NCBI RefSeq assembly: GCF_011745625.1
Contig: NW_027191469.1
Span: 310,001 to 374,000, forward strand
Origin: Cladosporium halotolerans
Taxonomy: Eukaryota
Length of the DNA: 64,000 bases
Reading direction: 5' to 3'
The stretch's first letter is position 1; each line of letters starts with the position of its first letter. Positions 38,111 to 55,636 of the stretch are shown here, piece after piece. A program made the translations under genes and the position numbers. A model generated the notes under the pieces. The model was not told the origin of the DNA. It searched no databases and worked only from the letters and a program-made list of their open reading frames with translations.

Positions 38111-38459
38111 GTCCGAGGGGGCGAGGCGTAAGCGTTGTCAAGATGTGCCATACGTCAACATTTCTTGACTTGCTCTAAAGAAAAGGTAATTCTCAAGGAA
38201 CTTGCAGCTGCACGCTTGCGCCCCGTGGCTTGCTCGGTTAGATGCGCAGTCGGCTCAGCCTTGTTATGCAACACACGACCTCAGCCTCGTCACCGGCTCG
38301 CGCCCAGAGCTCTGTACTCATCATCCACGACCATCCCGGAGGAAGAACACTGTTTCAAGAGTCGACGCTCAAGTCATCCCATTTTTACAGCGGAACGTGC
38401 TCCCTGACCGATCTTCCTGCCACTACTCATCCTGGTCATCTTCGGGCCCGGAAAATACT

Positions 38460-41400
38460 ATGGATGCTGCCAGCCTCATATATACTGTTTCCAAGGATCT
38501 CTATGTATTCTACCAAAAAGCAAACAGACGCGAGGATGACATCAAAGACATCCGAACCCAGTTGCTCTGGATGGGGGAGAAGTCTGTCTTGGTCCAAGTT
38601 TTGCTGCAACGAGATGGCGTCAAGGCTGAAGACACGTCGAAGATCGAGAGCAACCTGCAGAATTGCCAAACTGCCGTGATAGAGCTCACCAGTGCTGTGG
38701 ACAAGCTGAAAACATTGGACCATAGCAGCACAAATGGCATCGCAAACCTAAAAACCCGGCTCATAAAGATGGGAGTCAGGACAGCATGGCCGTTAAAGAC
38801 GGAGACGATTATTGCTCTTGGAGGGCACGTCAGGACATGTCATGATGCTCTGGACTCTGCAATGTCGCTCTTGCACATGAACATCAGCGCATCGAATATC
38901 GAAAAAGTCCGAGATCTGGACAAGACGATCATGAGTGGAAAGACGAGCTTGGAGAATGCCCTGAACACCGCTCGATCCTTGTTTAAAGATGAGCTTCAGA
39001 TAATCTCACGTCAGCTGGTACAACAATCCCAGGTACTCGCGCATCAGGCTAAATTGCTAGTTAGCGAGCAAGAAATACAACGGACACAAAGAGTGTTGGA
39101 CAGCTTGAAGTACGACGGCATGGAAGATCGCGAGCACCAGATAGAAGATTCCAAAGACATTACCTACGTCTGGGTTTTCACCCATGAGGCGAAAAACCTG
39201 CCAGAAGTGCAGAACCTTGTGAATTTCCTGAACACTGGCTCTGGCCTTTTTTGGATCTCAGGCGAAGCAGCATCCGGAAAGTCCACTTTCATGAAGTACC
39301 TTGCGAGGCCCCAACGCACAGGATCCGACTTGTGGCAGTGGAACGGAAACAGTGAATTCATCGTCGTTCGGCACTTTTGCTTCGTCGCTGGATTGGAGAT
39401 GCAGAAGACCCAACTTGGCCTGCTGAGAACTTTGCTATTCTACCTACTCAAAGCGGAACCGGGCCTTGTTCCCGATGTCTGCCCTGATGTGCCCAATGCT
39501 GGCCTCGGGCAAGGTCCCTGGTCGGTCCGTGACTTGCGCGGTTCCTTGCAACGTGCTGTTCAAGCGACTTCTAGGCGACTTTGTATTTTCGTTGACGGGT
39601 TGGATGAGATCTACAAGGAATCTGAGCTCGAAGATGTCGTTCGCTTTCTGAAACAAATCGCTTCTCATGGGCACGTCAAACTGATCATCTCTTCTCGGCC
39701 GTGGAGAGTCTTCAGGGGCCACTGTGCTGCGAAAAATGAGTTACACATGAAAAGTATCAACACAAGAGCGATTGTTTCGCATCTGAAGAGCACACTTGGA
39801 TCCTTGCCTGCTTTCCTTGACGTCTCCTGGCAATGCCAGACGGGTTTTCTCGAGTGCGAGCACACCGACGACTACTCACAGAATATCGACAGAAATGCCC
39901 ATGGAACGGCCCACAGGTTAATCTTCAACCTCCTTTACAAAGCCCAAGGGAACTTCCTTTGGATCTATCTAATCTCAAAATCCATCCGATCAAGGTTGGA
40001 TGCAGATCTCAGCATGGCTAGCACCATCAAAAGAATCGATGAAACCCCAAGCGATCTCAACACTTACTTCCGAGAGATGATCCTTGAAAGACTTGACAAA
40101 GACCTGCGATCTGAGACTGCCATGGCTTTGCGTATCGCACTTCTGCCGGACTACGCCACCTCATGGATCTCATTTTGGCAGCTTTTGAACCACTGCAATG
40201 GCGAAGCGCCATCGCTAGAGCACGCCGACTTCTCTACACTGACACCCTATCAACTGTACGATCGCCCAGCGGTTGAGAGCATGATACGGCAGACAGGTGA
40301 TTTCCTGGACCAGTGTGGCAGAGATCTTCTGGACACTCGTCGAATGCGTCGTCTACTGATCACAGTGAACGGCCCTTGGAAGAGATTTGCAAGACGCCGC
40401 GTCATCTTCACCCATCGTACTGCGTATGATTTTTTGAAAACGCGAGAGATGGATGATCTGCTGAACGAGCGGACTCCACGGGCATTTCGCGACGAGAATT
40501 TCCCGCACAGCCTTCTACTTTCACAGATCAAACTATCATTTGGAGGCACAGGTGTCAGCAGCAGGAGGAATGAAGCAATCTCCGCCTGGCGACTCATTGA
40601 GCACGCTTTAAATCACTTCAATGAAGAACGGGTTTCACAGCAACCATCGAGGTTTGCGAAACTCGCCAAGGAAGCAGACGCCATAGCCCTGCACTATTTG
40701 GTGGATTTGGAATCTCTATTCCATGATTCTTCACAATACACTCTGTCGGACAAGGTTGTTTCAAAGTACGTGTGTTACTCTCTCGCTTGTCACGGCTGTT
40801 ATGGCACCATTGATACGATTCTGGAGCGATGGCCGGCGCAAGCCTGCTCTATTCGTGACTATTTCGACCACGACATGTTAAGCGATGCTTTGCGTCTGTC
40901 ACCGTATCATTATGATGACGAAAGTCCCAATTTGAAATGGCTGAGGAAACTACTTGCCGCAGGTGCTGATCCGAATAGGCCATGCATCTTCTCATCGTTC
41001 CGATCCAATCAAACGGATGCCTTAGCATGGTCCACAACTTGGTGCAGATTTCTGGACGAGCTGGAAGACCACACGCAAGGTTTGCCTGTTCAAGCAGACG
41101 AAGGAGACCAAGGATCTGTAATAGCTCCACCTCTTCCTTTTTCGTCTCCGAGTGTACGATCTGCAATCAAGCTCCTCCTTGAATTCGGTGCAGACCTTCA
41201 ATTCACTCGTACTAGACTGGATCCAAGGACCGTCGACTTCCAATTCCGCACTGAGTCTGATATAGGGGACGATACTGTGATTGAGGACGGACGCATCGAT
41301 CCACTAGCCATACTACGAGCCCGGCTTCCCATGGACGCCGATTCAGAATGGCCTTCGCTCCTAGAGCACTACCTGAAACCCGAAACACGCCAGGAAATAC

Positions 41401-41474
41401 AAGAAAGACGTCGGAAGATCCTGGAAAAATGGCCACCGTCATATCGACCGAACGCCTTGACAGAACTTGTCTGA
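38460..41474 (+). CDS. NACHT-domain (fungal NLR-like STAND) protein with a helical N-terminal domain and degenerate ankyrin-like C-terminus
   Basis: Walker A FWISGEAASGKSTFMK, Walker B CIFVDGLDE, ISSRP, AQGNFLW and FTHRTAYDFL. LLAAGADPN and LLLEFGADL occur near the C-terminus. Intronless. Confidence 0.9.
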   Translation: MDAASLIYTVSKDLYVFYQKANRREDDIKDIRTQLLWMGEKSVLVQVLLQRDGVKAEDTSKIESNLQNCQTAVIELTSAVDKLKTLDHSSTNGIANLKTRLIKMGVRTAWPLKTETIIALGGHVRTCHDALDSAMSLLHMNISASNIEKVRDLDKTIMSGKTSLENALNTARSLFKDELQIISRQLVQQSQVLAHQAKLLVSEQEIQRTQRVLDSLKYDGMEDREHQIEDSKDITYVWVFTHEAKNLPEVQNLVNFLNTGSGLFWISGEAASGKSTFMKYLARPQRTGSDLWQWNGNSEFIVVRHFCFVAGLEMQKTQLGLLRTLLFYLLKAEPGLVPDVCPDVPNAGLGQGPWSVRDLRGSLQRAVQATSRRLCIFVDGLDEIYKESELEDVVRFLKQIASHGHVKLIISSRPWRVFRGHCAAKNELHMKSINTRAIVSHLKSTLGSLPAFLDVSWQCQTGFLECEHTDDYSQNIDRNAHGTAHRLIFNLLYKAQGNFLWIYLISKSIRSRLDADLSMASTIKRIDETPSDLNTYFREMILERLDKDLRSETAMALRIALLPDYATSWISFWQLLNHCNGEAPSLEHADFSTLTPYQLYDRPAVESMIRQTGDFLDQCGRDLLDTRRMRRLLITVNGPWKRFARRRVIFTHRTAYDFLKTREMDDLLNERTPRAFRDENFPHSLLLSQIKLSFGGTGVSSRRNEAISAWRLIEHALNHFNEERVSQQPSRFAKLAKEADAIALHYLVDLESLFHDSSQYTLSDKVVSKYVCYSLACHGCYGTIDTILERWPAQACSIRDYFDHDMLSDALRLSPYHYDDESPNLKWLRKLLAAGADPNRPCIFSSFRSNQTDALAWSTTWCRFLDELEDHTQGLPVQADEGDQGSVIAPPLPFSSPSVRSAIKLLLEFGADLQFTRTRLDPRTVDFQFRTESDIGDDTVIEDGRIDPLAILRARLPMDADSEWPSLLEHYLKPETRQEIQERRRKILEKWPPSYRPNALTELV

Positions 41475-42976: not shown

Positions 42977-43910
42977 TCAAGGCTTCTGCTCAGCCTGAGC
43001 ACCACCCGCATCAGCGACGGGCTTGACGTCGCTGGCGCTCTCCTTAGTCTGGCCCAGAGGCAGCTTCTCCTTGGAAGCCTCGAGGCTCTCCTCCTGGCTG
43101 GACAGGAGGGTGTGGACCGGGGCGTCGAGCTTGGCGCGGCCCTGGAGGAAGTCGAGCTCCATCATGAAGAGGAAGCCCTTCAGGTCACCAGCCAGCTTGC
43201 GGACGAGGGAACCGGCGGCGGCGGCGGATCCACCTGGGAGAGAGATATGGTCAGCGGAGGTGTTCACTGGGAGTGCAGCAGGGTTGACGGGAGAGCTTAC
43301 CAGTCGCGATAATGTCGTCCACGATGATGACCTTCTGGCCCGGCTTGATCGCGTCCTCCTGCACCTGGAAGTGGTCGGTGCCGTACTCCTTCTGGTAGCC
43401 CTCGGTGACACACTTGCCAGGGAGCTTGCCCTGCTTGCGGACGGGGACGAAGCCGGCGCCCAGGCGCAGAGCGAGAGTAGGACCGAAGAGGAAGCCGCGG
43501 CTCTCAAGGCCGACGACGACGTCGATGTCGCTCTTCTCGCCGACAGTGGTGTCGAAGGCGGCCGCGACCTGCAGCTCCAGGGCGCGCACGAGGTCCGTGA
43601 AGGTCTTGTGGTTGGCGAAGATGGGCATGATGTCCTCGAAGAGGATGCCCGGCGAGGGGAAGTCGGGGAACTGGCGCAGAGCTCCGCGCAGGTTTACTTT
43701 AAGACGGGAGAGTTCGGCGGGACCGGAGGCATAGGCGGCGGCGAGTCCTCCTTGGGCGCCATTGCTGGCGGTGCTGGTGGTCGGGTCGGGCTTCTCGGCG
43801 GGCGGGTGGGAGGCAGTGGAGGGCTTGTCGACGGCCTGAGTGCTGGCGGAGGTGTTGTCCGGGTGGCCGTGAGGAGGGTGCTGAGCGTGCGAGACGGGGG
43901 CGGCGCTCAT
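42977..43910 (-). CDS. apt1: Adenine phosphoribosyltransferase; one intron at about 43233-43300
   Basis: [39 protein letters not shown] and the PRPP motif [12 protein letters not shown]. Confidence 0.96.
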
Positions 43911-45594
43911 ATTGGGAGAAGGAGGGGAGGGGTTTTTTCCTGGGGTGGGATGGGAAATTTTTTGGTGGGCGGATGGCTGCGTCGGCGGGTGCAAGAGTGA
44001 GGTAAGCGGTGACAGGGCCGAGAGGGGAGCTGGAGCGAGATGCTGGGGGGAGGTGCAGGCGAGCGGCGGGCGACACGGCAGGTTTGTGCGTGGAGTCTGG
44101 CGATGGTTGGGTCTGGTTGGGTTTGTTGCTGCACAGATATCACAGCAGGGCGGGCGGCGGGCGGCGATGGTGGGAGTGCGGGGCGCAGGGCCGGGAGGGA
44201 CTGATTGACGAACACCGACCAAGGGCCGCTCCCAGGGACCGCTCACATTGTTGTTTTGGGCTGTGATTACTTGACTGTGCGACAAATGATCACGCATATA
44301 CGACATGTTCATTGTATACGTCTAGCAAGGTGACACACCACAACGCTGTCCATACCATACCCGGCAATAAACCAACCACACACATTGATCCCACCATCAT
44401 CTACCCCCTCCCATCCCATCCCATCCCACCTCGCACCCTCCACGCCGTCACGCAATAATAACAAAGCCCCCAAGTAGCTCCCTCCCACCACGAGTGGCGG
44501 TCTACACGCTCCACACGTGTCCGCGCGTATTGGCTGGCAAATCACTCAGCGGCAAAGCGAGAGATTCGCGTTGCGGGGCACACGCACCAAGCACACACGC
44601 CTGGTCTGGCCTGACTCTTCACGCAGCCCTGGCCGCTTGGAAGCGAGCTCCGAGCTCCCTAAGGTAGTAAGTAGTAGGTCCTTGGTAGCAAGCTTCAGGT
44701 CCATCGAACGTCTTCCCACGTCACACCAGCAGAGCGGCAGAAGAAACGCAGACGCAGCCTGCACTCCACCCTCAACGCATGCACCCGCCCGTCAGCCGCA
44801 CGAGCTACGAGTCTCGAAAGCGTTCCAGAAGGCCTCCCCGTCTGCAGCCGAGCCGGTGCTGTCGCGTCAGATAAGCAGCGAGTCGTGCGAGAGGTTGTTC
44901 AACCAGACGGACGGCTGGCGGGGGAAGGGCTTGCTTGCTGCGTCTGCCGACGTCGTCCCATCTTCGGGAGACCGTGATGGCCGGATGATGCTGTGTAACG
45001 TTGCACGCGATGGTTTCTTTGTGTCTTGTTGAGGGTGGGCAAGATTGAGTGGATTTGTGCATGCAATAGATTGTGGATGGTGAACGCTTCAAGAACGAAG
45101 TGTTGTATGTCGGCTTCTATTGGGTCAACCATAGGTGTGGATGTCTCACTTTTGTACGCCTGCTCATCGACTGCACCCGCGTTCTGATCTATCAGGTCGC
45201 TCAGCTGGCTTGACGAGGCCTACAATGAACCTCAAGAATGTTACAGATGGGTTGGCCAACATCTCTGATTGATTGGATCCTTGAACCCATCACACAATCG
45301 TGTCTGACTAACAAAGCCAAATGGGTCCTGTTGACACGTCTGACAGCTCCCAGGTGGCGTGAACACCTGGAGAAATCGCCATTCTGCTCGTCTCACGTTC
45401 GACCGTCTTTATCCGGAAGCTTGTGCCTCGCGCTCGTGCCAAAATGTGACATGTCGGTGGTGCAGGCACGGGACGCGTTACATTTGCGACGCGTCGTGCG
45501 TCCTTTACCGCCGCTCAATTCTACCACCACCTTCCCAACCGAGAACAGCGAAAGCTTGGCATCACCGTCGAATCACGCCGCAACTTCTCCCCCT

Positions 45595-46287
45595 TCAGCA
45601 AAACCTATGTGTCTGCTTCACAACCGCGTCGTCCATCTCCCACTTATCCAACAACCCACACCTCCCAAACACACCCCTAACATCCTTCTCCTTCACATCG
45701 TCCCTCATCCAACCGATTAGCACCTCCCTCAACTTCTCCCTAACCTCCTCGCAAACCTCCCTATCAACCCAAGGCAACACCCCCTCCTCCCCCCTCCCCT
45801 CCAGCCTCGCCCAATACCCCGTCCAACACCTCCTCGCAAACCGCACAACAGCCCGCTCCACCACCTCCCTCCCACACCCCAGCTCCAACCCGACCAGAAC
45901 CTCCACGACCCTCCTGGCACCCCACACCGGCATCCCCGGCCACGCGCCCGTCACCGTAACCCAAGCCTCAGCATACCTCTCCGCGAGCCCCGGGTCCAAA
46001 GCCGCCCAGTCCTGCTTGGGGTGAGTCGTGGCGAGCCTGTGCGCTTCGGCAGCGATGGGCGAGGGGACGAGGTAGCCGGCGTGCTGCGTCTGCCAGGGCG
46101 TGCCGTCCCAGACGTCGTAGAGGACGTGGCCGCGGGCGAGGGTGGCGGTGCGGGCGAAGTGGCGGGTGTGGGCGGGGTCGGTGGCGGGGATGAGCGTGTG
46201 GGTTGGGGGAAAGGGGTGGGATTTCGTGATGCGGATGACGGTTGAGTATTCGTGGTCTTGGGTGGGTAGGTGGGTGTGGAAATCCAT
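45595..46287 (-). CDS. Hypothetical protein (230 aa)
   Basis: ATG-initiated ORF with the same 5' C-rich to 3' G-rich codon gradient as neighbouring genes. No recognised domain. Confidence 0.55.
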   Translation of the reverse strand: MDFHTHLPTQDHEYSTVIRITKSHPFPPTHTLIPATDPAHTRHFARTATLARGHVLYDVWDGTPWQTQHAGYLVPSPIAAEAHRLATTHPKQDWAALDPGLAERYAEAWVTVTGAWPGMPVWGARRVVEVLVGLELGCGREVVERAVVRFARRCWTGYWARLEGRGEEGVLPWVDREVCEEVREKLREVLIGWMRDDVKEKDVRGVFGRCGLLDKWEMDDAVVKQTHRFC

Positions 46288-46703
46288 GATTTTCGGATTG
46301 GGTTGGGTGCTTGGTGGGTTCTGGGGTGACGTGATTTCGCGCATGTAATGTGCTGTAGACGTCGTGCGCGTGGGTTTGTGTAGTTCCCAGACATCCTTTG
46401 TCGTCCGGATCGAGCATGGAGCACAAGTCCCTTTGTTCGAAGCTGTGATGTCTGGCGGGTGCGCATCGTGAGATTGAGGTGGATGTTCTTTGTTGCTCTT
46501 GCGGAGTTTGCACGGACGTCATATGCGCTGCCAGGGAGAAACGGCATATCTTCCATGGTCATCATGGAAGCCGTTCTATTCGACGATATTCAGTCTTGAA
46601 CAAAGCATGTCCAGTGTGGTATCCGGCCAAGAAATCAATGCCAAAGAAGACATGGAAGGGCCGAAATCGAAATCTCTCAAGAATGCACTGTTGGACGACA
46701 ATC

Positions 46704-48803
46704 TCAAATCGGTGTGTCAGTCCCGTTGACGCCTTCCGGACCAGCACTTGGTTCCGCTGAATCATCGTCCTGTATCTCGATAGGGTCTTCGTGCGTGTTG
46801 TTTGTCTGGGTGCCAGATGAGCGCGCGACATTAGCAGGAGCCGCAGCGCCGGGTGTAGCAGGAGGGGCGCCGTTGCCAGATGGCATGCGCGCCGCGCCAA
46901 CCTCATCAGACTCTCCCATGCCATTGACTTCTGGCCAGAGACCCTTCCATAGCCAGAGGGCTTGTGCGAAAGTCGCCTCGCAGCGCTGCAGTTCCTGGCG
47001 ACCGTTTCCTTGTGTCATGCCGTTAGCTACCTCGTCGACGATCGACCTGCAAGCGTCGACGAATTTGCTGAAGGCCGGTGACGTCCAATTAGGGATCAAA
47101 GCCTGATGAAGGGCGTTGATGTGAGCTTCATTGCTGGTTGAGTCCGGGCCGAAAGGGTTACCATTATTGTTGGACTGTCCAGTCATGAACGAAGGGAGCG
47201 AGTAGTTTGACCCAGAGGTATTGTTGGAGGTGAAGGTGCTGGCGTAGTGCCACGACTTTCGATAGCACTAGGATCATATGTTAGAATAAGGACACCATGA
47301 GAACTTGGTCATAGACATACATGTTCAGTAGCCCAAAGCAAAACCAGGCCTTCCAGCAAAGATGCGCCAGAGCTTGAGGTGCTGGCAAACAGATCGATGA
47401 AACCTTTCGTTGCGGGCTTCATGTCTTCTGAATCGATCTGCAAACCATACTTGCTGGCGGTGTTGTCGAAGAAATTCATTTCACGGCGAACGTTGTTCAG
47501 CGTGCTGATTAGGAGGTCCATGGTACGGAATATTGTGTTATCCATCGTGATTGCGGTATCCGGGAGCCGCATCTTGCCGAGTAGACGTCCGATGAAAGTC
47601 ACAAAGGCACGTGAGATGTGGGCGTCCTGTGACAGCCATTGGCATAGCGCGTGTGCGGACAGAGTACCACAGCCTGCGTGAGAGAGGAAAGGAAGTTGAG
47701 TGGCCGAATCGAGAGATCCCGAATCGCGGCTCAAGAGATGATTGACAAGAGACGGCGTTGGTCCGGGTGGAGGCGGTGGCGCCATGGGTTGGCGATTAGG
47801 CGTCACAGGCACACCCGGATAGGAGTAGCCTTTGGCAGCAAGGGGAGGAGTGGGATTCGCATGAGGTCGCGGAGCGGCGCTCAGATGCGGATTCGCGACG
47901 TTGCCGCGTAGAATGCTGCCACTCTTTCTCTGAGGCGGCATCTTTTCTGGTTCGGGGCTTTTCTCCCCGGCTACTGTCCGCCTTTCCTTCTCTGCAAGGT
48001 AGGTCGGACACCTGAGCAGATGCTCAATTTGACGAGTAGTGTTTTTTGCTCGCTTGAAGCCGCAATGCCTGCAGCGACTGCGTGTGCACTACATGACAGC
48101 ATTAGTGCTGTCGCGAGAAGTGATGACTATCTGCAAATGAAGGATCAAGGTACCCTTCGCTCGTCGTCGAACGAGTCCTCAAACTCCTATCAATGGCCGT
48201 CAGTTTCGTCATCATGCTAGTTCTTCGGCCGGTGCATCAATCTACCCTTTGGAGATCTGCATGAGGTTAGATTTAATTACATAGAGCGCCAAGCCAAAGC
48301 GCCGGAGAGGAAGTACCTGGTCTTTTCTGCTGTAGTACCGAGCAGCTAGTCTCTGCACCTGCTGCGGCAGGTGGACTGGCTTGGTCGCTATTTTGTTGCC
48401 GTTGGCTGAGAAAGGAAAGTCAGCATGCACGCGGTACTCGGCGTTGTAGTGAAAAGCAGACGCGAACGCTCTGGCGCGAAGCCAGACGTGGGTTTTGAGC
48501 CGAAAGAGGAAAGGGCTGATTTCACGCTTACTCTTCGCTGGTCGTCCCGTGAAAGGAAGGGCGTGGGACTCTCTGGTTGTATGGGTTCACTGGGCCCATT
48601 TCTTGCCCATTGCCTGCTTCTCTCCATTCGAGGTACGCCGGGCATGTCGTGAGATGGGTCTTCTTACGGCCTAGGCTGACGGTACTGACGGTCCAGGTCT
48701 TGCAGTGCAAGCAACGAATCGTCGGAATCTCTGGGTCGCCGCTCTGGTGAGTGTCAAGTGTCTCAAACTGGCTGTGAGTGTAGACGTCCCCTGTACGAGG
48801 CAT
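46704..48803 (-). CDS. Tandem BED-type zinc finger + TenA/heme-oxygenase-like fusion protein (578 aa); exons 48803-48532, 48405-48317, 48256-48246, 48186-48154, 48088-47321, 47267-46704
   Basis: All five introns are GT..CTRAY..YAG and phases match (1737 nt). Finger 1: IRCLHC..KKTHLTTC. Finger 2: SRCRHC..AKNTTRQIEHLLRC. TenA-like motifs ATQLPFLSHAGCGTL, WLSQD, RREMNFF, LWATEHCY and IPNWTSPAF. Confidence 0.8.
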
Positions 48804-49520
48804 TGTTGCTTGGACAGGTAGCCAGTACAGCGCACAACGTTTGGACACGCTCTGGCCGATATCAATTGGTCGTAAGACGGCCGTGAACGACTGAAAAACA
48901 GCTTGTAACGGCGATAATTGGCGGCTCTAATACCACCTAAACCAGATGGGGATCAAGACGGAGCCTGCCGCCTTTGCCAAGTCGCTCTCAGAAAGAATGA
49001 GAATGCCTCCGTTGCCGTAAGACAAGGCACATGGACAATTTCTGTCCAAATGACGAATCCACAGCCTTCTGCAGCCGTCGATTGCAGCAACGAGCAACCG
49101 TCTGCGTTGATCTAAGTTTTCGTTGGCACCGAACAGAGGAAATGCGTTGCGAAGAACCTGAAGAACGACATGCGGTGCCCCACCAAGCCGCTACAGGAAG
49201 CCAGCCCACCGGGGTCTGTCGTTAGCCCGAACCATGGACAAGCCAATTCTTGGGACGGCTCGCTCTTATCTTTTCCTTTGAGCCATCTTTTTCCTTTAGG
49301 AGCTTTCTGTCATCGCTACCGCAGCTGTTCTTTCTGCTAAGTTGACTCTCGAGGTCTCTCGTTCATCAGGCAGGTTCTCACTATCCTCAGGAATTGACTT
49401 CGACGTTTGCGACGCTTCTCGCCGATGTCGCTCTCAATGTTTGGTAGCACTAACCATCTTCACAGGCGCATCCACTGTCTGAAACAGCTTTCGAACGACT
49501 GTACGCCACGCCCTACCACA

Positions 49521-49813
49521 ATGCATTCTAGTAGCAAAGCCGCATCTGGAGTCCAAGATCAAGGTATCGCCCGTAAACAGCATGAGCCGGTGCTCGACGC
49601 TTAGCTGCGGCCCGTGACACGAGCGCATTACGCATACCGAAAGGTATGGACGCTCTGTCCGGACCGCAGCATTCGTCGGGCTGAGATCATACGGCCTTGA
49701 ACTTGCTCTGGGTAAAGCCAGCGAAAGGATCATGCTTTTGAGACAATCTGAGAGTGAGGTGTGAGAAACTGACTTCTTTAGGACACCATGGAAGAGCGCG
49801 GAACAATGGATGA
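49521..49813 (+). promoter_or_regulatory. Inhibitory uORF created when the proximal donor (49564) is spliced to the acceptor (49781)
   Basis: ATG 49521 reads MHSSSKAASGVQDQ, splices in phase 1 to G-HHGRARNNG*, and overlaps the permease ATG (49788) out of frame. Confidence 0.65.
49579..49736 (+). promoter_or_regulatory. TPP (thiamine pyrophosphate) riboswitch aptamer in a 5'-UTR intron of the NCS1 permease
   Basis: P1 AGCATGA/TCATGCT, P2 GCCG/CGGC, P3 GCTCGACG/CGTCGGGC with a long extension, CTGAGA pyrimidine-sensing junction, and P4/P5 ACTTGCTCTGGGTAAAGCCAGCGAAAGG matching the fungal pattern ACTTGATCTGGATAATACCAGCGAAAGG. Intron is GTATCG (49564) ... CTGAC ... TAG (49781). Confidence 0.93.
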
Positions 49814-51389
49814 AGCGGCCGGTGTGTCGCAACGCCAGAGAATGCAAGATGTTGAAAAGATCGGGCCAAACCTTGCGCCCCAAACGTCTGTCGCTGCGCA
49901 GACGGATTCTACGGATGCCGAAGCAACTGCTGGCCGTGGACCAATGCGATACATGAAGTCTTTCGAGAAGACCTTAATTCGCTACAATATGGAAGCGCGA
50001 GGAATCCAAAGAGTCATGCCGGAAGACCGCCACAGCCTTACTCAACTGGGCTTTGGCCAGATCGGTATCCTGTGGTTCAGTGTCAACTTGGCCGCCAACA
50101 ATATCACTCTTGGTATGCTGGGTCCCGCCGTGTACCATCTCGGCTTCACTGAGGCGAGCTTGTGCGCGGTGTTCGGTATGATTGTAGGCATCCTCCCAGT
50201 CGCGTACGTCGCTACGTTCGGACCAAGGTCTGGTAACAGGACCATGGTTTTCGCCCGCTACTCGATGGGATGGTACCCTGCGAAGATCATCGTGATCTTG
50301 AACATCATCGTTCTTCTTGGATACTCTCTCCTCGATGCTGTGATCGCCGGACAGATGATCAGCGCTGTCAGCGGCAGCGGCAACTTGAGCGTCGTCGTGG
50401 GCATCATCGTGGTCGCCGTAATCACCTGGGTCATCACGACCTTCGGCTACAGCGTCTTCCACCTGTACGAGCGATACGCCTGGGTTCCCCAAATCATCGT
50501 GGTCTCCATCCTAGCCGGCGTCGCCGGCCCCTCCTTCGACCTGACCTCCAACCCATCCGAAGGCGAAGCACCCCTCACAATCAAAGGCAACCGCCTCAGC
50601 TTCTTCAGCCTCTGCCTAGCCGCCGCCATCACGTACAGCGGCGGCGCCGCCGACCTCTTCGTCTACTACCCCGAATACGCGCCGCGCCGCAAAGTCTTCT
50701 TCGTCACCGCCCTCGGCCTCGCCGCCTCCTTCACCTACGCCTTCATAGTCGGCATCGGCCTCGGCTCCGGCATCGCGCGCAACACCGCCTGGAGCGACGC
50801 GTACACCGTCTCGCAGGGCGCGCTGATCGTCGAGGGCTTCGCGCCGCTGGGCGCCTTCGGGTCTTTCTGCGGCGTGATCGTGGCCCTCGGCCTCGTCGGC
50901 AACATCATCCTGCCCGTCTACGCGTCGGGCGTCGACTTCCAGACGCTGGGGACGAATTTCGAGAAGATCCCGCGCGTCGTGTGGAACTCCGTCGGCGTGG
51001 TGATTTTCACCGTCTGCGCGATTGCTGGGCGCGCGAACCTCGCGACGATCTTTACGAACTTCCTCGCGCTTATGGGATACTGGGTGTCGATCTGGATCGC
51101 GATTCTGCTGGAAGAGCACCTGCTTTTCCGCAAGTGGCGCGGACTGGGCTGGAATTGGGATGCGTGGGACGACGCGCGCAAGCTGCCTGTTGGTCTTGCG
51201 GCACTGGTTGCGTTCCTCGTCGGTTGGGCGGGCTCGATTCTGTGCATGGCGCAGGTTTGGTATATTGGTCCGCTGGCGGCGCTGGTGGGAGAGTATGGTG
51301 GAGACATGGGCAACTACGTTGGGTTTGCTTGGGCGGGGATTGTGTTTCCTGGTCTGAGGTGGTTGGAACTGAGGAAGTTTGGACGGTGA
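49788..51389 (+). CDS. NCS1-family purine-cytosine permease (Fcy2/Tpn1-like), probably transporting thiamine or a precursor
   Basis: EARGIQRV, LWFSVN, FGPRSGNRTMV..RYSMGW, FHLYERYAW, ADLFVYYP, NFLALMGYW, AQVWYIGP and ELRKFGR; about 12 hydrophobic helices. Substrate is inferred from the riboswitch. Confidence 0.92.
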   Translation: MEERGTMDEAAGVSQRQRMQDVEKIGPNLAPQTSVAAQTDSTDAEATAGRGPMRYMKSFEKTLIRYNMEARGIQRVMPEDRHSLTQLGFGQIGILWFSVNLAANNITLGMLGPAVYHLGFTEASLCAVFGMIVGILPVAYVATFGPRSGNRTMVFARYSMGWYPAKIIVILNIIVLLGYSLLDAVIAGQMISAVSGSGNLSVVVGIIVVAVITWVITTFGYSVFHLYERYAWVPQIIVVSILAGVAGPSFDLTSNPSEGEAPLTIKGNRLSFFSLCLAAAITYSGGAADLFVYYPEYAPRRKVFFVTALGLAASFTYAFIVGIGLGSGIARNTAWSDAYTVSQGALIVEGFAPLGAFGSFCGVIVALGLVGNIILPVYASGVDFQTLGTNFEKIPRVVWNSVGVVIFTVCAIAGRANLATIFTNFLALMGYWVSIWIAILLEEHLLFRKWRGLGWNWDAWDDARKLPVGLAALVAFLVGWAGSILCMAQVWYIGPLAALVGEYGGDMGNYVGFAWAGIVFPGLRWLELRKFGR

Positions 51390-52911: not shown

Positions 52912-55266
52912 ATGGGCTACGACAAGACTGACCAGCTGGCTATCAACACCATCCGCACTCTTGCGGTACGTTTGTTGGGACGAGCTCAATGGAGGGGCAG
53001 CACCGCGTCACTGCACCGCAATGGCTGCGGTCAAGCTCCTCCAGCACGACAGTATCACTGACTGACATGATTTACAGGTGGATGCCACCTTCGCTGCCAA
53101 CTCTGGCCACCCCGGTGCGCCCATGGGTATGGCCCCGGTCGTGAGTCCCCCCCGCCCTCACCGCAAGCTTCCCATCAGCTCCCAGTCGCTAACCACACAT
53201 CCTGCCCGCAGTCCCACGTCCTCTTCAACAAGTTCATGAAGTTCAACCCCAAGAACCCCAAGTGGCTCAACCGTGACCGCTTCGTTCTTTCCAACGGCCA
53301 CGGCTGCGTGCTCCAGTACTCTCTGCTGCACCTCTTCGGCTACAAGCTCTCCATCGACGACCTGAAGAACTTCCGTCAGGTCGACTCCATCACCCCCGGT
53401 CACCCTGAGTCTCACGACACTGAGGGCATTGAGGTCACCACGGGCCCTCTCGGCCAGGGTTTCGCCAACGCCGTCGGTCTCGCCATGGCTGAGCGCCAGA
53501 CCGCCGCTACCTTCAACAAGCCAGGCTACGAGCTCGTCAACAACTACACTTACTGCTTCTTCGGTGATGGCTGCGCCATGGAGGGCATTGCCTCCGAGGC
53601 TGCCTCCACTGCCGGTCACCTTCAGCTCGGCAACCTGATCACCTTCTACGATGACAACCACATCTCCATTGGTAAGAAAGATTTTGGAATAGAAATAGAA
53701 GGGACACAGCTAATATTCTTTAGACGGTGACACCAAGTGCGCCTTCACTGAGGACGTCAGCAAGCGCTTCGAGGCCTACGGCTGGCACGTCGTGTGGGTC
53801 AAGGACGGTGACAACGACCTCGAGGGCATTGAGAAGGCTATCAAGGAGTGCCAGGCCGTCAAGGACAAGCCCTCCATGATCAGGCTCACCACCACCATTG
53901 GTTTCGGCTCCAAGCTCCAGGGCACCGGTGGTGTCCACGGTAACCCTCTCAAGGAGGACGACTGCAAGCAGGTCAAGGAGAAGTTCGGCTTCGACCCGTC
54001 CAAGAGCTTCGTCGTCCCCCAGGAGGTCTACGACATGTACCACAAGCACGCCGACGAGGGTGCTGCCGCTGAGCAGGAGTGGAACCAGCTCCTCGAGAAG
54101 TACTCCGCTGAGTACAAGGCTGAGGGCGCTGACCTCAAGCGTCGCCTGACTGGCAAGCTTCCCGACGGCTGGCAGGAGAAGCTCCCGACCTACAAGGTCG
54201 ACGATGCCGCCATTGCTTCCCGTAAGCTCTCCGAGACCGTCCTTGAGAAGATCTACGACGTCATCCCTGAGCTCGTCTCCGGCTCTGCCGATCTGACTGG
54301 CTCCAATAACACCCGCTGGAAGGCCGCCGTCGACTTCCAGCCCCCCAGCACCGGTATTGGTGAGTGGTCTGGCCGCTACATGCGCTACGGTGTGCGTGAG
54401 CACGCCATGGCCGCCATCATGAACGGTCTCTCCGCCTACGGTACCCTCATCCCCGCTGGTGGCACCTTCCTTAACTTCGTCTCCTACGCCGCCGGTGCTG
54501 TCCGTCTCTCCTCCCTCTCTCAGCAGCGCGTCATCTACGTCGCTACCCACGACTCCATCGGTCTGGGTGAGGACGGCCCTACCCACCAGCCGATCGAGAC
54601 CCTCGCTCACTTCCGTGCCCTGCCCAACATGATGGTCTGGCGCCCGGCCGACGGCAACGAGTGCTCCGCCGCTTACTACGTCGCCCTCACCTCCCAGCAC
54701 ACTCCCTCCATCCTCGCCCTCACCCGCCAGAACCTTCCCCAGCTCGAGGGCTCCACCATCGAGAAGGCCATCAAGGGTGGTTACGTCGCGCTCGAGGACA
54801 AGGAGGCCGACGTCACCCTCGTCTCCACCGGTTCCGAGGTCTCCATCTGTCTTGAGGCTGTCAAGACCCTCAAGGAGAAGAGCAACCTCAAGGCCCGCGT
54901 CGTCTCCATGCCCTGCACTGAGGTCTTCGACGCCCAGCCCAAGGACTACAAGCTTTCCGTCATCCCCGACGGCATCCCCGCCATGTCCGTTGAGGTCATG
55001 TCCACTCTCGGCTGGGAGAAGTACTCTCACGAGCAGTTCGGTCTCAACCGCTTCGGTGCCTCTGGCCCCTACAAGAAGGTTTACGAGGTACGTTACCCAT
55101 CGCCTTCTAATTATCCATTTATATTGTATGCTAATAATGCCTTCCACAGAAATTCGAGTTCACCCCCGAGGGCATCTCCAAGCGCGCCGCTGCCACCGTC
55201 GATTTCTGGAAGGACGTCAAGCCCCTCCGCTCCCCGGTCAACCGCGCTTTCCAGCAGCTCATCTAA
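52912..55266 (+). CDS. tkl1: Transketolase; 4 introns
   Basis: [33 protein letters not shown]-binding GDGCAMEG...YDDN, GVREHAM and [16 protein letters not shown]. Strong C-ending codon bias. Confidence 0.98.
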
Positions 55267-55636
55267 GCTCGTGGAGGCGATGTGCTAACGACCGTGCGAC
55301 GACGAGGAAACTTCCCTGTTATGAAAAAAACGAATACAAAAGAAGAAAAAGTCTTCGGACACGAAGATAATGGTCTGGAGGCCTAATTCACACATGGTAG
55401 ATAGACCGTCCGGCTATATGGGAATATGACGTTTCACTTTTTTTCTACAAACAAGCCTGTCCGTATCTCGATTGTGAGGTCTCCGCCTTGTTGAGAATGT
55501 GTCTGCTCTTGTCTTGTTTACTTGTCACCCATATTCCATGCTCATCCTACATGTGAATGATGTTTCCCTTGCCCCGAAAAAGCTGACATGCACCAGATGT
55601 TCAATCCCAACTCACTGAGCATACAAAACGCAGCGC

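Follow-up and report, generated by a model that had tools for sequence, protein, structure and literature searches.

The yeast protein Thi3, which derives from a thiamine pyrophosphate (TPP) enzyme, senses TPP and cooperates with DNA-binding partners (PMC12329505). The Thi2/Thi3/Pdc2 circuit is patchily conserved beyond yeasts, and the available text of two studies describes TPP riboswitches alone for thiamine control in filamentous fungi (PMC12329505, PMC5882874). Arabidopsis At3g16990 belongs to TenA_E, a class without an active-site cysteine that hydrolyzes thiamine breakdown products (PMC5874261, PMC10277260). The active-site cysteine of TenA_C thiaminase II is Cys135 in Bacillus subtilis TenA, which also has an active-site glutamate, Glu205 (PMC10277260). 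Here we describe a gene that joins zinc fingers to a TenA-like domain. It lies on the minus strand (48803..46704) of a 64,000-nucleotide stretch of Cladosporium halotolerans DNA (NCBI RefSeq assembly GCF_011745625.1, contig NW_027191469.1, positions 310,001 to 374,000 of the forward strand; hereafter the window), and its 578-residue product carries two C2HC fingers followed by a helical domain related to TenA_E.

We favor, tentatively and with slightly less than even confidence, the interpretation that this protein is a dimeric regulator that binds nucleic acid, built on a pseudo-enzyme scaffold and linked to thiamine-pyrimidine salvage. It would act in the nucleus, binding nucleic acid, most likely DNA, via two basic BED-like C2HC fingers. 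Disordered linkers would tether the fingers to the TenA_E-derived helical domain, which is degenerate and probably serves as a dimerization module, possibly with a capacity for ligand binding as well.

Compared with At3g16990 (2f2g) and Pyrococcus furiosus PF1337 (1rtw), the window protein shares the all-helical heme-oxygenase-like fold, the W-A-x-E helix and the Q-D motif. It differs in having ~245 additional N-terminal residues that contain the two zinc fingers, an insertion of 30–40 residues ahead of the I-P-N-W-T-S helix, and Trp and Leu in place of a pocket Glu and Phe. Stand-alone fungal TenA-like proteins (e.g. P0091 and Aspergillus entries), by contrast, have no DNA-binding domain; their source names are ‘putative transcription regulator PAB1642’, ‘thiaminase’ and ‘heme oxygenase-like protein’. 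With BED fingers (PF02892; 2ct5, 2djr) the protein shares the C-x2-C-x13/15-H-x3-C spacing, an upstream aromatic/acidic motif and a modeled strand–strand–strand–helix arrangement, but it is without the hAT transposase part. Unlike yeast Thi2, Thi3 and Pdc2, it combines sensor-like and putative DNA-binding parts in one chain and uses a TenA fold rather than a pyruvate-decarboxylase-like one.

A preliminary description of this locus knew of no characterized protein with the architecture. Our literature searches, with most subscription journals outside their coverage, likewise gave no paper or experiment on two fingers joined to a TenA fold and none describing the stand-alone family. Public databases already list the proteins as uncharacterized entries.

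Gene model, transcript and relatives

Three minus-strand open reading frame (ORF) fragments cover the locus (48528..48926, 47309..48088 and 46704..47267). The preliminary description had joined them through five canonical introns into a single 578-residue frame, and this model was reproduced exactly. In script checks, the six exons join to 1737 nt, an uninterrupted frame of 578 codons followed by a stop codon, and the introns of 126, 60, 59, 65 and 53 nt each run from GT to AG. The exons and the evidence for each are given here, where X2 and X10 are sequencing runs from relatives:

48532..48803, minus strand: exon 1; ATG at 48803, residues 1–90 plus 2 nt; X2 joint 48405/48532; homologues begin MPRP.D
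48317..48405, minus strand: exon 2; 89 nt, low-complexity linker; frame join and X2 contig
48246..48256, minus strand: exon 3; 11-nt micro-exon encoding D-L-Q-R; frame join, X2 contig and homologue alignment
48154..48186, minus strand: exon 4; 33 nt, acidic/aromatic motif ahead of finger 2; X2 contig and homologues
47321..48088, minus strand: exon 5; finger 2, Pro-rich linker and first half of the TenA-like domain; ORF and X2 contig
46704..47267, minus strand: exon 6; second half of the TenA-like domain, acidic tail and stop (46706–46704); joint 47267/47321 in X2 and X10

Four runs were aligned on positions 46400–49100 at a likeness of at least 90%, and the transcripts are those of related strains. 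A 4078-nt contig from X2, a run whose RNA label is a guess (‘RNA?’), is 95–99% like the window and carries all five splice joints and lacks the introns. Its joints are placed at 47267/47321, 48090/48156, 48187/48317 and 48405/48532, and the flanks of the 48187/48317 joint are separated by 10 letters that match the 11-nt micro-exon in reverse complement. The intron 4 joint (48090/48156) falls 2 nt from the GT..AG borders and has non-canonical ends, an offset that would be explained by one base difference in the X2 strain (Arg to Lys at the end of exon 4). Run X10, recorded as RNA, contains the intron 5 joint. Contigs from X1 and X6 read unspliced across the introns and look like DNA, and therefore weigh neither for nor against the model. 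The X2 contig extends ~2 kb past 46400, possibly through a merge with the next gene, and does not inform the 3′ end. Separate genes had been named as the alternative that transcripts might reveal; in this close relative a single contig carries every joint, which supports a single gene with a single transcript.

With exon 5 as the query, a search of 1.84 billion representatives gave 318 proteins at E ≤ 0.001, 38 of them at E ≤ 1e-30. Matches of 455–2000 residues number 76; all the named ones are from Dothideomycetes, in genera that include Cladosporium, Pseudocercospora, Zasmidium, Cercospora, Zymoseptoria, Alternaria and Parastagonospora. Source labels are ‘heme oxygenase-like protein’, ‘Thiaminase-2/PQQC domain-containing protein’ and, twice, ‘transcription factor/regulator’. 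The top match is P0151 from Cladosporium sp. (71% identity, 80% of the query covered). Over its whole length, the joined window model can be aligned with two-finger homologues (552–578 residues, 46–52% identity).

Together with exon 4, the D-L-Q-R of the micro-exon aligns on a conserved D-[LIV]-x-[KR]-x-F-[DE]-E-F-W-D-D stretch of the homologues. The public gene model of P0151 omits finger 2, and many database entries start at finger 2. Evidently the 5′ part of these genes is hard to annotate, and public models of the family are often truncated or mis-joined because of the 11-nt micro-exon. By eye, the micro-exon seems old: D-V-K-K, D-L-K-R and D-V-T-K pieces stand at the corresponding place, between stop-rich stretches, in the distantly related loci L019, L020 and L025.

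The end of the reading frame sets the window copy apart from its relatives. A P-Y-G-G-x-G-L-G-A-V tail is encoded in all 10 related loci examined, and the window frame read past its stop (46704–46706, 40 nt downstream) continues T-V-H-S. The C-terminal tail of the window copy thus looks freshly lost through a nonsense change. Among the strain differences listed for the aligned runs, a table that continues for another 125 rows, none falls at this stop codon.

Zinc fingers and the TenA-like domain

The protein is composed of three recognizable structural units, in order from the N-terminus:

48618..48782, minus strand: BED-like C2HC finger 1; ligands C31, C34, H50 and C54; AlphaFold2 (AF2) model and conserved ligands
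47954..48256, minus strand: BED-like C2HC finger 2; ligands C141, C144, H158 and C162; spans introns 3 and 4
46932..47755, minus strand: TenA_E-like (heme-oxygenase-fold) domain; spans intron 5; Asp290 kept, Trp498 and Leu501 substituted

Both fingers have the C-x2-C...H-x3-C arrangement first read from the ORF fragments, with the ligand sets listed above. In an alignment of 49 family members, the four ligands of finger 2 are kept in 46, 46, 49 and 49 members, respectively. Finger 1, which is also present in 19 of these members, has invariant ligands in all 22 rows of its own alignment. The two fingers are 36% identical over 33 residues (E 5e-5), and finger 1 appears to be a copy of finger 2. 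Between the knuckle and the helix lies an R-A-K-N-T-T-R-Q-x-E-H-L stretch that is near-invariant in the 49 members, and we take its N-T-T-R-Q-x-E-H-L portion to resemble the BED motif N-T-S-N-L-x-x-H-L. In the window, finger 2 has a strongly basic composition, with ~13 Lys/Arg against 3 Asp/Glu in 40 residues.

Each finger is predicted to contain three short strands followed by a helix. In the AF2 model of homologue P0199, the predicted local distance difference test score (pLDDT) is ~87–91 for finger 1 and 92–95 for finger 2, and a model of window residues 1–76 shows three strands and then helices at a mean pLDDT of 71.5. Aromatic residues ahead of the first Cys pair are a trait of the original BED description. 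The corresponding segments here are Y-T-H-S-Q-F in finger 1 and [Y/E]-F-[D/E]-[E/D]-[F/S]-[W/F]-D-D in finger 2, and both are conserved in homologues. The language-model clusters nearest finger 2 are zf-BED and zf-BED_2 (score 0.87, a lead only). Both fingers are probably of a BED-like C2HC type.

The TenA-like domain is best recognized through its relatives. Window exon 5 alone matches Pfam TENA_THI-4 only at E = 0.16, and PF03070 is found in 37 of the 49 members at E ≤ 10 (best 6.6e-11). The family profile finds 1rtw in the PDB at 3.4e-8; with stand-alone relatives added, it matches 1rtw at 6.5e-29 and 2f2g at 7e-22, over the full length. The AF2 model of P0199, a protein 46–52% identical to that of the window, has pLDDT values of 92–98 over residues 230–490, and Foldseek places it on 1rtw (E 9e-8, TMt 0.88) and 2f2g (TMt 0.85). 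Two di-iron enzymes, UndA and CADD, superpose on the model as well. Profile and homologue fold together confirm, at family level, the TenA/PqqC/heme-oxygenase fold that had been assigned to this region. Polar residues conserved specifically in the clade include an S-H-A-G-C-G segment and a His after Q-D-x.

Stand-alone TenA-like proteins of ~250 residues are 35–48% identical to the window domain and have the same motif set. Among the best 120 of 518 matches at E ≤ 1e-10, these proteins come from Eurotiomycetes, Lecanoromycetes, Sordariomycetes, Leotiomycetes and others, and no named entry is from a Dothideomycete. The fused form may correspond, in Dothideomycetes, to the stand-alone proteins, and the fused family derives from this ~250-residue TenA_E-like family. 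Other fusions occur in predicted proteins: the TenA-like domain follows HTH_ABP1_N and HTH_Tnp_Tc5, domains of the CENP-B/Tc5 type, in P0054 and P0331, and an HTH_SB/sigma-r4-like helix-turn-helix (HTH) in P0104. The fusion types of the TenA-like family are therefore one BED finger, two BED fingers, HTH_ABP1_N with HTH_Tnp_Tc5, and another HTH domain. This repeated joining to DNA-binding modules fits a DNA-bound role. Pdc2 has a DNA-binding domain of the HTH_ABP1_N plus HTH_Tnp_Tc5 type. In all three HTH fusions the pocket Asp, Glu and Phe discussed below are intact.

The pocket of the two-finger proteins differs from that of hydrolases at up to three positions. The E-x-x-F-W motif aligns with F-E-L-I-F-W in 1rtw, L-E-V-A-F-W in 2f2g and Y-E-Y-L-F-W in 3ibx; from the B. 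subtilis sequence and the alignments with the Helicobacter pylori, Pyrococcus and Arabidopsis proteins, we take its Glu to be B. subtilis Glu205. The Asp of the Q-D motif corresponds to B. subtilis Asp44. The Glu of E-x-x-F-W is replaced by Trp in the window (Trp498) and in 19/19 two-finger members; it is Glu in 16/30 one-finger members and in the stand-alone and HTH-fused rows shown. The Phe is kept in 19/30 one-finger members and in none of the 19 two-finger members, which have Ile, Val or Leu, as does the window (Leu501). The Asp of Q-D-x-x-[YF] is present in the window (Asp290), in 28/30 one-finger members and in 3/19 two-finger members, with Asn, Glu, His or Gln in the other 16. Nearly all stand-alone rows shown keep the Asp, Glu and Phe. 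The nearest solved relatives are of the TenA_E type; the sole nearby Cys, in E-H-C-Y, which may or may not be equivalent to Cys135, occurs in 12/19 two-finger and 22/30 one-finger rows.

Because the Glu is replaced by Trp in all two-finger members and the window, the window copy is probably not a hydrolase. The family is nonetheless under purifying selection (dN 0.2–0.5 with dS saturated; dN/dS 0.07–0.30 where computable), and the window domain is a TenA_E derivative that lost residues kept by hydrolases and is still constrained. A working TenA_E-type enzyme, such as an amino-hydroxymethylpyrimidine (amino-HMP) or formylamino-HMP hydrolase, would account for the full-length homology to Arabidopsis TenA_E (2f2g, E 7e-22) and the Pyrococcus TenA homologue, the Asp kept in the window, the many conserved polar residues and the intact D, E and F of most one-finger and HTH-fused relatives. 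It would also stand beside its substrate importer, the adjoining NCS1 permease with a TPP riboswitch described below, with fingers serving localization, stability or a moonlighting function. Activity is nevertheless hard to reconcile with Glu replaced by Trp and Phe by an aliphatic residue in the window and 19/19 two-finger members and with an Asp that varies in 16/19, and it leaves unexplained why a soluble hydrolase would have two basic fingers that are conserved. We consider an enzymatic role improbable.

Structure prediction gives modest support to self-association of the degenerate domain, as in the regulator that we favor. A homodimer prediction scored 0.38 against 0.00 for the best control, passing a mark that was reached by 21/30 proteins solved as pairs and by 0/23 solved as single chains. 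At least 94% of the contacts recur between separate runs, and the partner pLDDT is at least 81. The predicted interface is located on the conserved H-I-S-R-A...F-I-G-x-L-I-G-K-x-R-L-P helix.

The divergent permease and its probable riboswitch

The gene is arranged head to head with a permease gene, and the region between them contains several elements read from the sequence:

49788..51389, plus strand: NCS1-family permease, divergent; Pfam Transp_cyt_pur E 1.6e-18; TIGR00800 ncs1 E 4.9e-41, below cut-off
48804..49787, no strand assigned: intergenic region shared with the permease; presumed regulatory link
49521 (ATG), plus strand: short upstream ORF, preceding the putative permease 5′ intron
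49564..49781, plus strand: putative permease 5′ intron, a few nucleotides ahead of the permease ATG; GT at 49564, branch-like CTGAC at 49769, AG at 49780–81; read from sequence
49578..49736, plus strand: probable TPP riboswitch aptamer; long P3 stem; RF00059 match, orthologous matches and folds

The permease has no match to PDB sequences at E ≤ 0.01, and the CytX model matches it weakly (27 bits against a cut-off of 310). Two members of the NCS1 family, PLUTO and CytX, transport HMP or are candidates for doing so (PMC5874261).

A scan of the whole window at Rfam gathering thresholds gave no matches. On a 401-nt segment, RF00059 scores 35.1 bits (E 2.4e-5), below its gathering value of 54.3; from the folds, an insert of ~80 nt in P3 would explain the low score. 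Orthologous matches lie in the same place and on the same strand in L030 (37.2 bits), L019 (31.8), L027 (31.4) and L077 (30.3). The core motifs CUGAGA and ..CCAGCG.A..G and the P1–P5 architecture are kept in these orthologues. Minimum-energy folds contain P1, P2, a long variable P3 and P4/5 in 6/7 sequences, with P1 absent from L030, and 7 of the 36 pairs in the consensus structure have compensatory changes. The element is probably a TPP riboswitch. The permease fits the ‘nucleoside transporter’ (NCS1) class of Ascomycota TPP riboswitches, with the aptamer in a 5′ intron and an upstream ORF, and members of this class act via alternative splicing with upstream ORFs (PMC5882874). The available text of that paper contains no occurrence of ‘TenA’ and does not mention a divergent TenA-like partner gene.

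The pairing was followed through 80 loci of relatives taken from metagenome contigs, some of them duplicates, 27 of which have at least 3 kb upstream. A divergent upstream permease accompanies 6/6 two-finger loci that have this much flank, and L018 has one as well. Five sequence-distinct lineages are represented, including the window, and their intergenic DNA is 43–75% identical. Three blocks, 36, 30 and 14 nt long, are shared without a difference by 4/5 lineage groups (shuffles gave 0), and none was found in L030. They sit in the permease 5′ region, within the riboswitch-like element, and the intron donor, which lies within a block, is conserved in the same proportion of groups (4/5) and was not found in L030.

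Two leads outside this element were pursued and rejected. Five 7-mers are shared by four Cladosporium-like lineages (0.6 expected, shuffle maximum 3); they are non-collinear, and no 8-mer is shared. In an enrichment search for upstream 8-mers, for which 20 near-duplicates were removed from 51 usable regions to leave 31, the top string was read as coding for Q-D-T-P of the one-finger proteins, with starts estimated roughly.

The riboswitch-controlled NCS1 permease next door, which does not figure in the preliminary description, is the strongest hint of a link to thiamine. Because the gene stands head to head with a permease bearing a TPP riboswitch, its most likely role is the control of thiamine-pyrimidine salvage or uptake. 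Transcriptional control would be exerted on the divergent permease, on the gene itself, or on both. A zinc-finger protein on a TenA scaffold, kept beside a riboswitch-controlled transporter, makes a concrete and testable candidate for a protein that regulates the salvage of vitamin B1 precursors.

A more specific proposal, which we hold to be unlikely, is that the BED–TenA family is a protein-level sensor-regulator of Dothideomycete thiamine-pyrimidine salvage, built from a former enzyme and acting on the promoter shared with the NCS1 importer. If so, the importer of HMP-like precursors would be doubly controlled, with the protein reading a precursor or breakdown product and the TPP riboswitch reading the end product. 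The one-finger and HTH-fused relatives with intact pockets would then be ligand-sensing ancestors, and the pocket of the two-finger clade would be retuned or ligand-independent. The natural series, from stand-alone, one-finger and HTH-fused proteins with an intact pocket to two-finger proteins with a degenerate one, could reveal the course by which an enzyme turns into a regulatory module.

Weighing a regulatory role and the wider neighborhood

Several results count against the regulator that we favor, and some of them bear on its fingers. Pfam zf-BED gave no match at E ≤ 1 on the window exon pieces. It is the second most frequent Pfam family among the 49 members (22 at E ≤ 10), all below threshold, with a best E of 0.011; P0208, for example, scores 12.4 bits (E 0.16) against a gathering score of 20.6 bits for PF02892. 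Foldseek found no match to the finger 1 model at E ≤ 0.001. In VIA-align, the top rows for finger 1 are RNA-related C2H2 proteins: Serrate (Z 3.9), an SF3A2-like spliceosomal chain (6qx9_A2; 3.7), TUT1 (3.5), TUT4 (3.5) and ARS2 (3.4). ZBED2 (2djr) follows at Z 3.1 (root-mean-square deviation 5.3, 65 aligned) and ZBED1 (2ct5) at Z 2.1; all are below 4 and amount to a tie. The BED assignment made in the preliminary description holds as to nearest named family and ligand spacing, but the Pfam cut-off is never reached and fold comparison leaves BED level with RNA-binding C2H2 fingers.

These structural neighbors would suit fingers that bind RNA or protein rather than DNA, with the protein acting post-transcriptionally, for example on the splicing or stability of particular mRNAs. 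Regulation of the neighboring gene via RNA structure and splicing is consistent with this. Yet no Z-score reaches 4, ZBED2 is level with the others, zf-BED and zf-BED_2 are the sole named families recovered by sequence, and the sister fusions bear transposase-type DNA-binding HTH domains, and we judge RNA or protein binding very unlikely.

Further points concern the regulator’s scaffold. The loss of canonical pocket residues weakens the case for sensing of HMP-like pyrimidines. The TenA pocket had been proposed as a sensor or an oligomerization module; the replaced residues speak against an aminopyrimidine sensor, and the homodimer prediction gives modest support to oligomerization. The dimer result may itself reflect memory, because solved TenA oligomers exist. 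The window copy stops 13–16 codons before the conserved P-Y-G-G-x-G-L-G-A-V-H-A-A-N-Q tail.

The remaining points concern the regulator’s link to thiamine. The permease pairing is restricted to the two-finger clade: the permease occurs in 1/17 loci that start from finger 2 (L077, ~6 kb away) and in 0/4 TenA-only loci. Footprinting and k-mer searches found no conserved candidate binding motif outside the riboswitch block. The pairing may be inherited gene order, because an APRT gene and an ORF at 45595–46518 are also syntenic in the loci that have the permease.

A DNA-binding or chromatin protein without any tie to thiamine, in which the TenA-like domain is a mere scaffold and the permease a neighbor by descent, would fit the degenerate pocket, the 16/17 ‘from finger 2’ loci that lack the pairing and the flanking genes that are co-syntenic in the same relatives. 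Five one-finger loci (L006, L010, L013, L014 and L033) have no thiamine-related neighbor gene and no riboswitch, and the neighbors of one-finger genes (GH5, P450, Kre9 and amidase) are unrelated to thiamine. Against such a protein, the pairing persists although the intergenic DNA outside the riboswitch block has diverged to 43–58% identity, L030 retains it with a permease of just 65% identity, and the domain descends from a thiamine salvage enzyme. We regard a protein unconnected with thiamine as rather unlikely, and the regulator of thiamine-pyrimidine salvage remains our preferred, if tentative, interpretation.

Other genes of the neighborhood recur among the relatives or stand out within the window. 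An APRT-like gene (43251–44321, minus strand) lies a few kb from the family gene and is also found, on varying sides, in L006, L077, L020, L064, L026 and L033, with a Pribosyltran match in the genes of L006 and L077; this adjacency may be an old micro-synteny among nucleobase-salvage genes. Directly downstream of the family gene, a 307-codon frame (45595–46518, minus strand) has no Pfam match and is conserved beside the family gene in 9 loci at 30–45% identity. Two overlapping frames at 53071–55288 (plus strand) look, from their translations, like one intron-split gene for transketolase, a TPP-dependent enzyme. On the same strand, an ORF of 1094 codons (38190–41474) contains a P-loop-like G-E-A-A-S-G-K-S-T motif.

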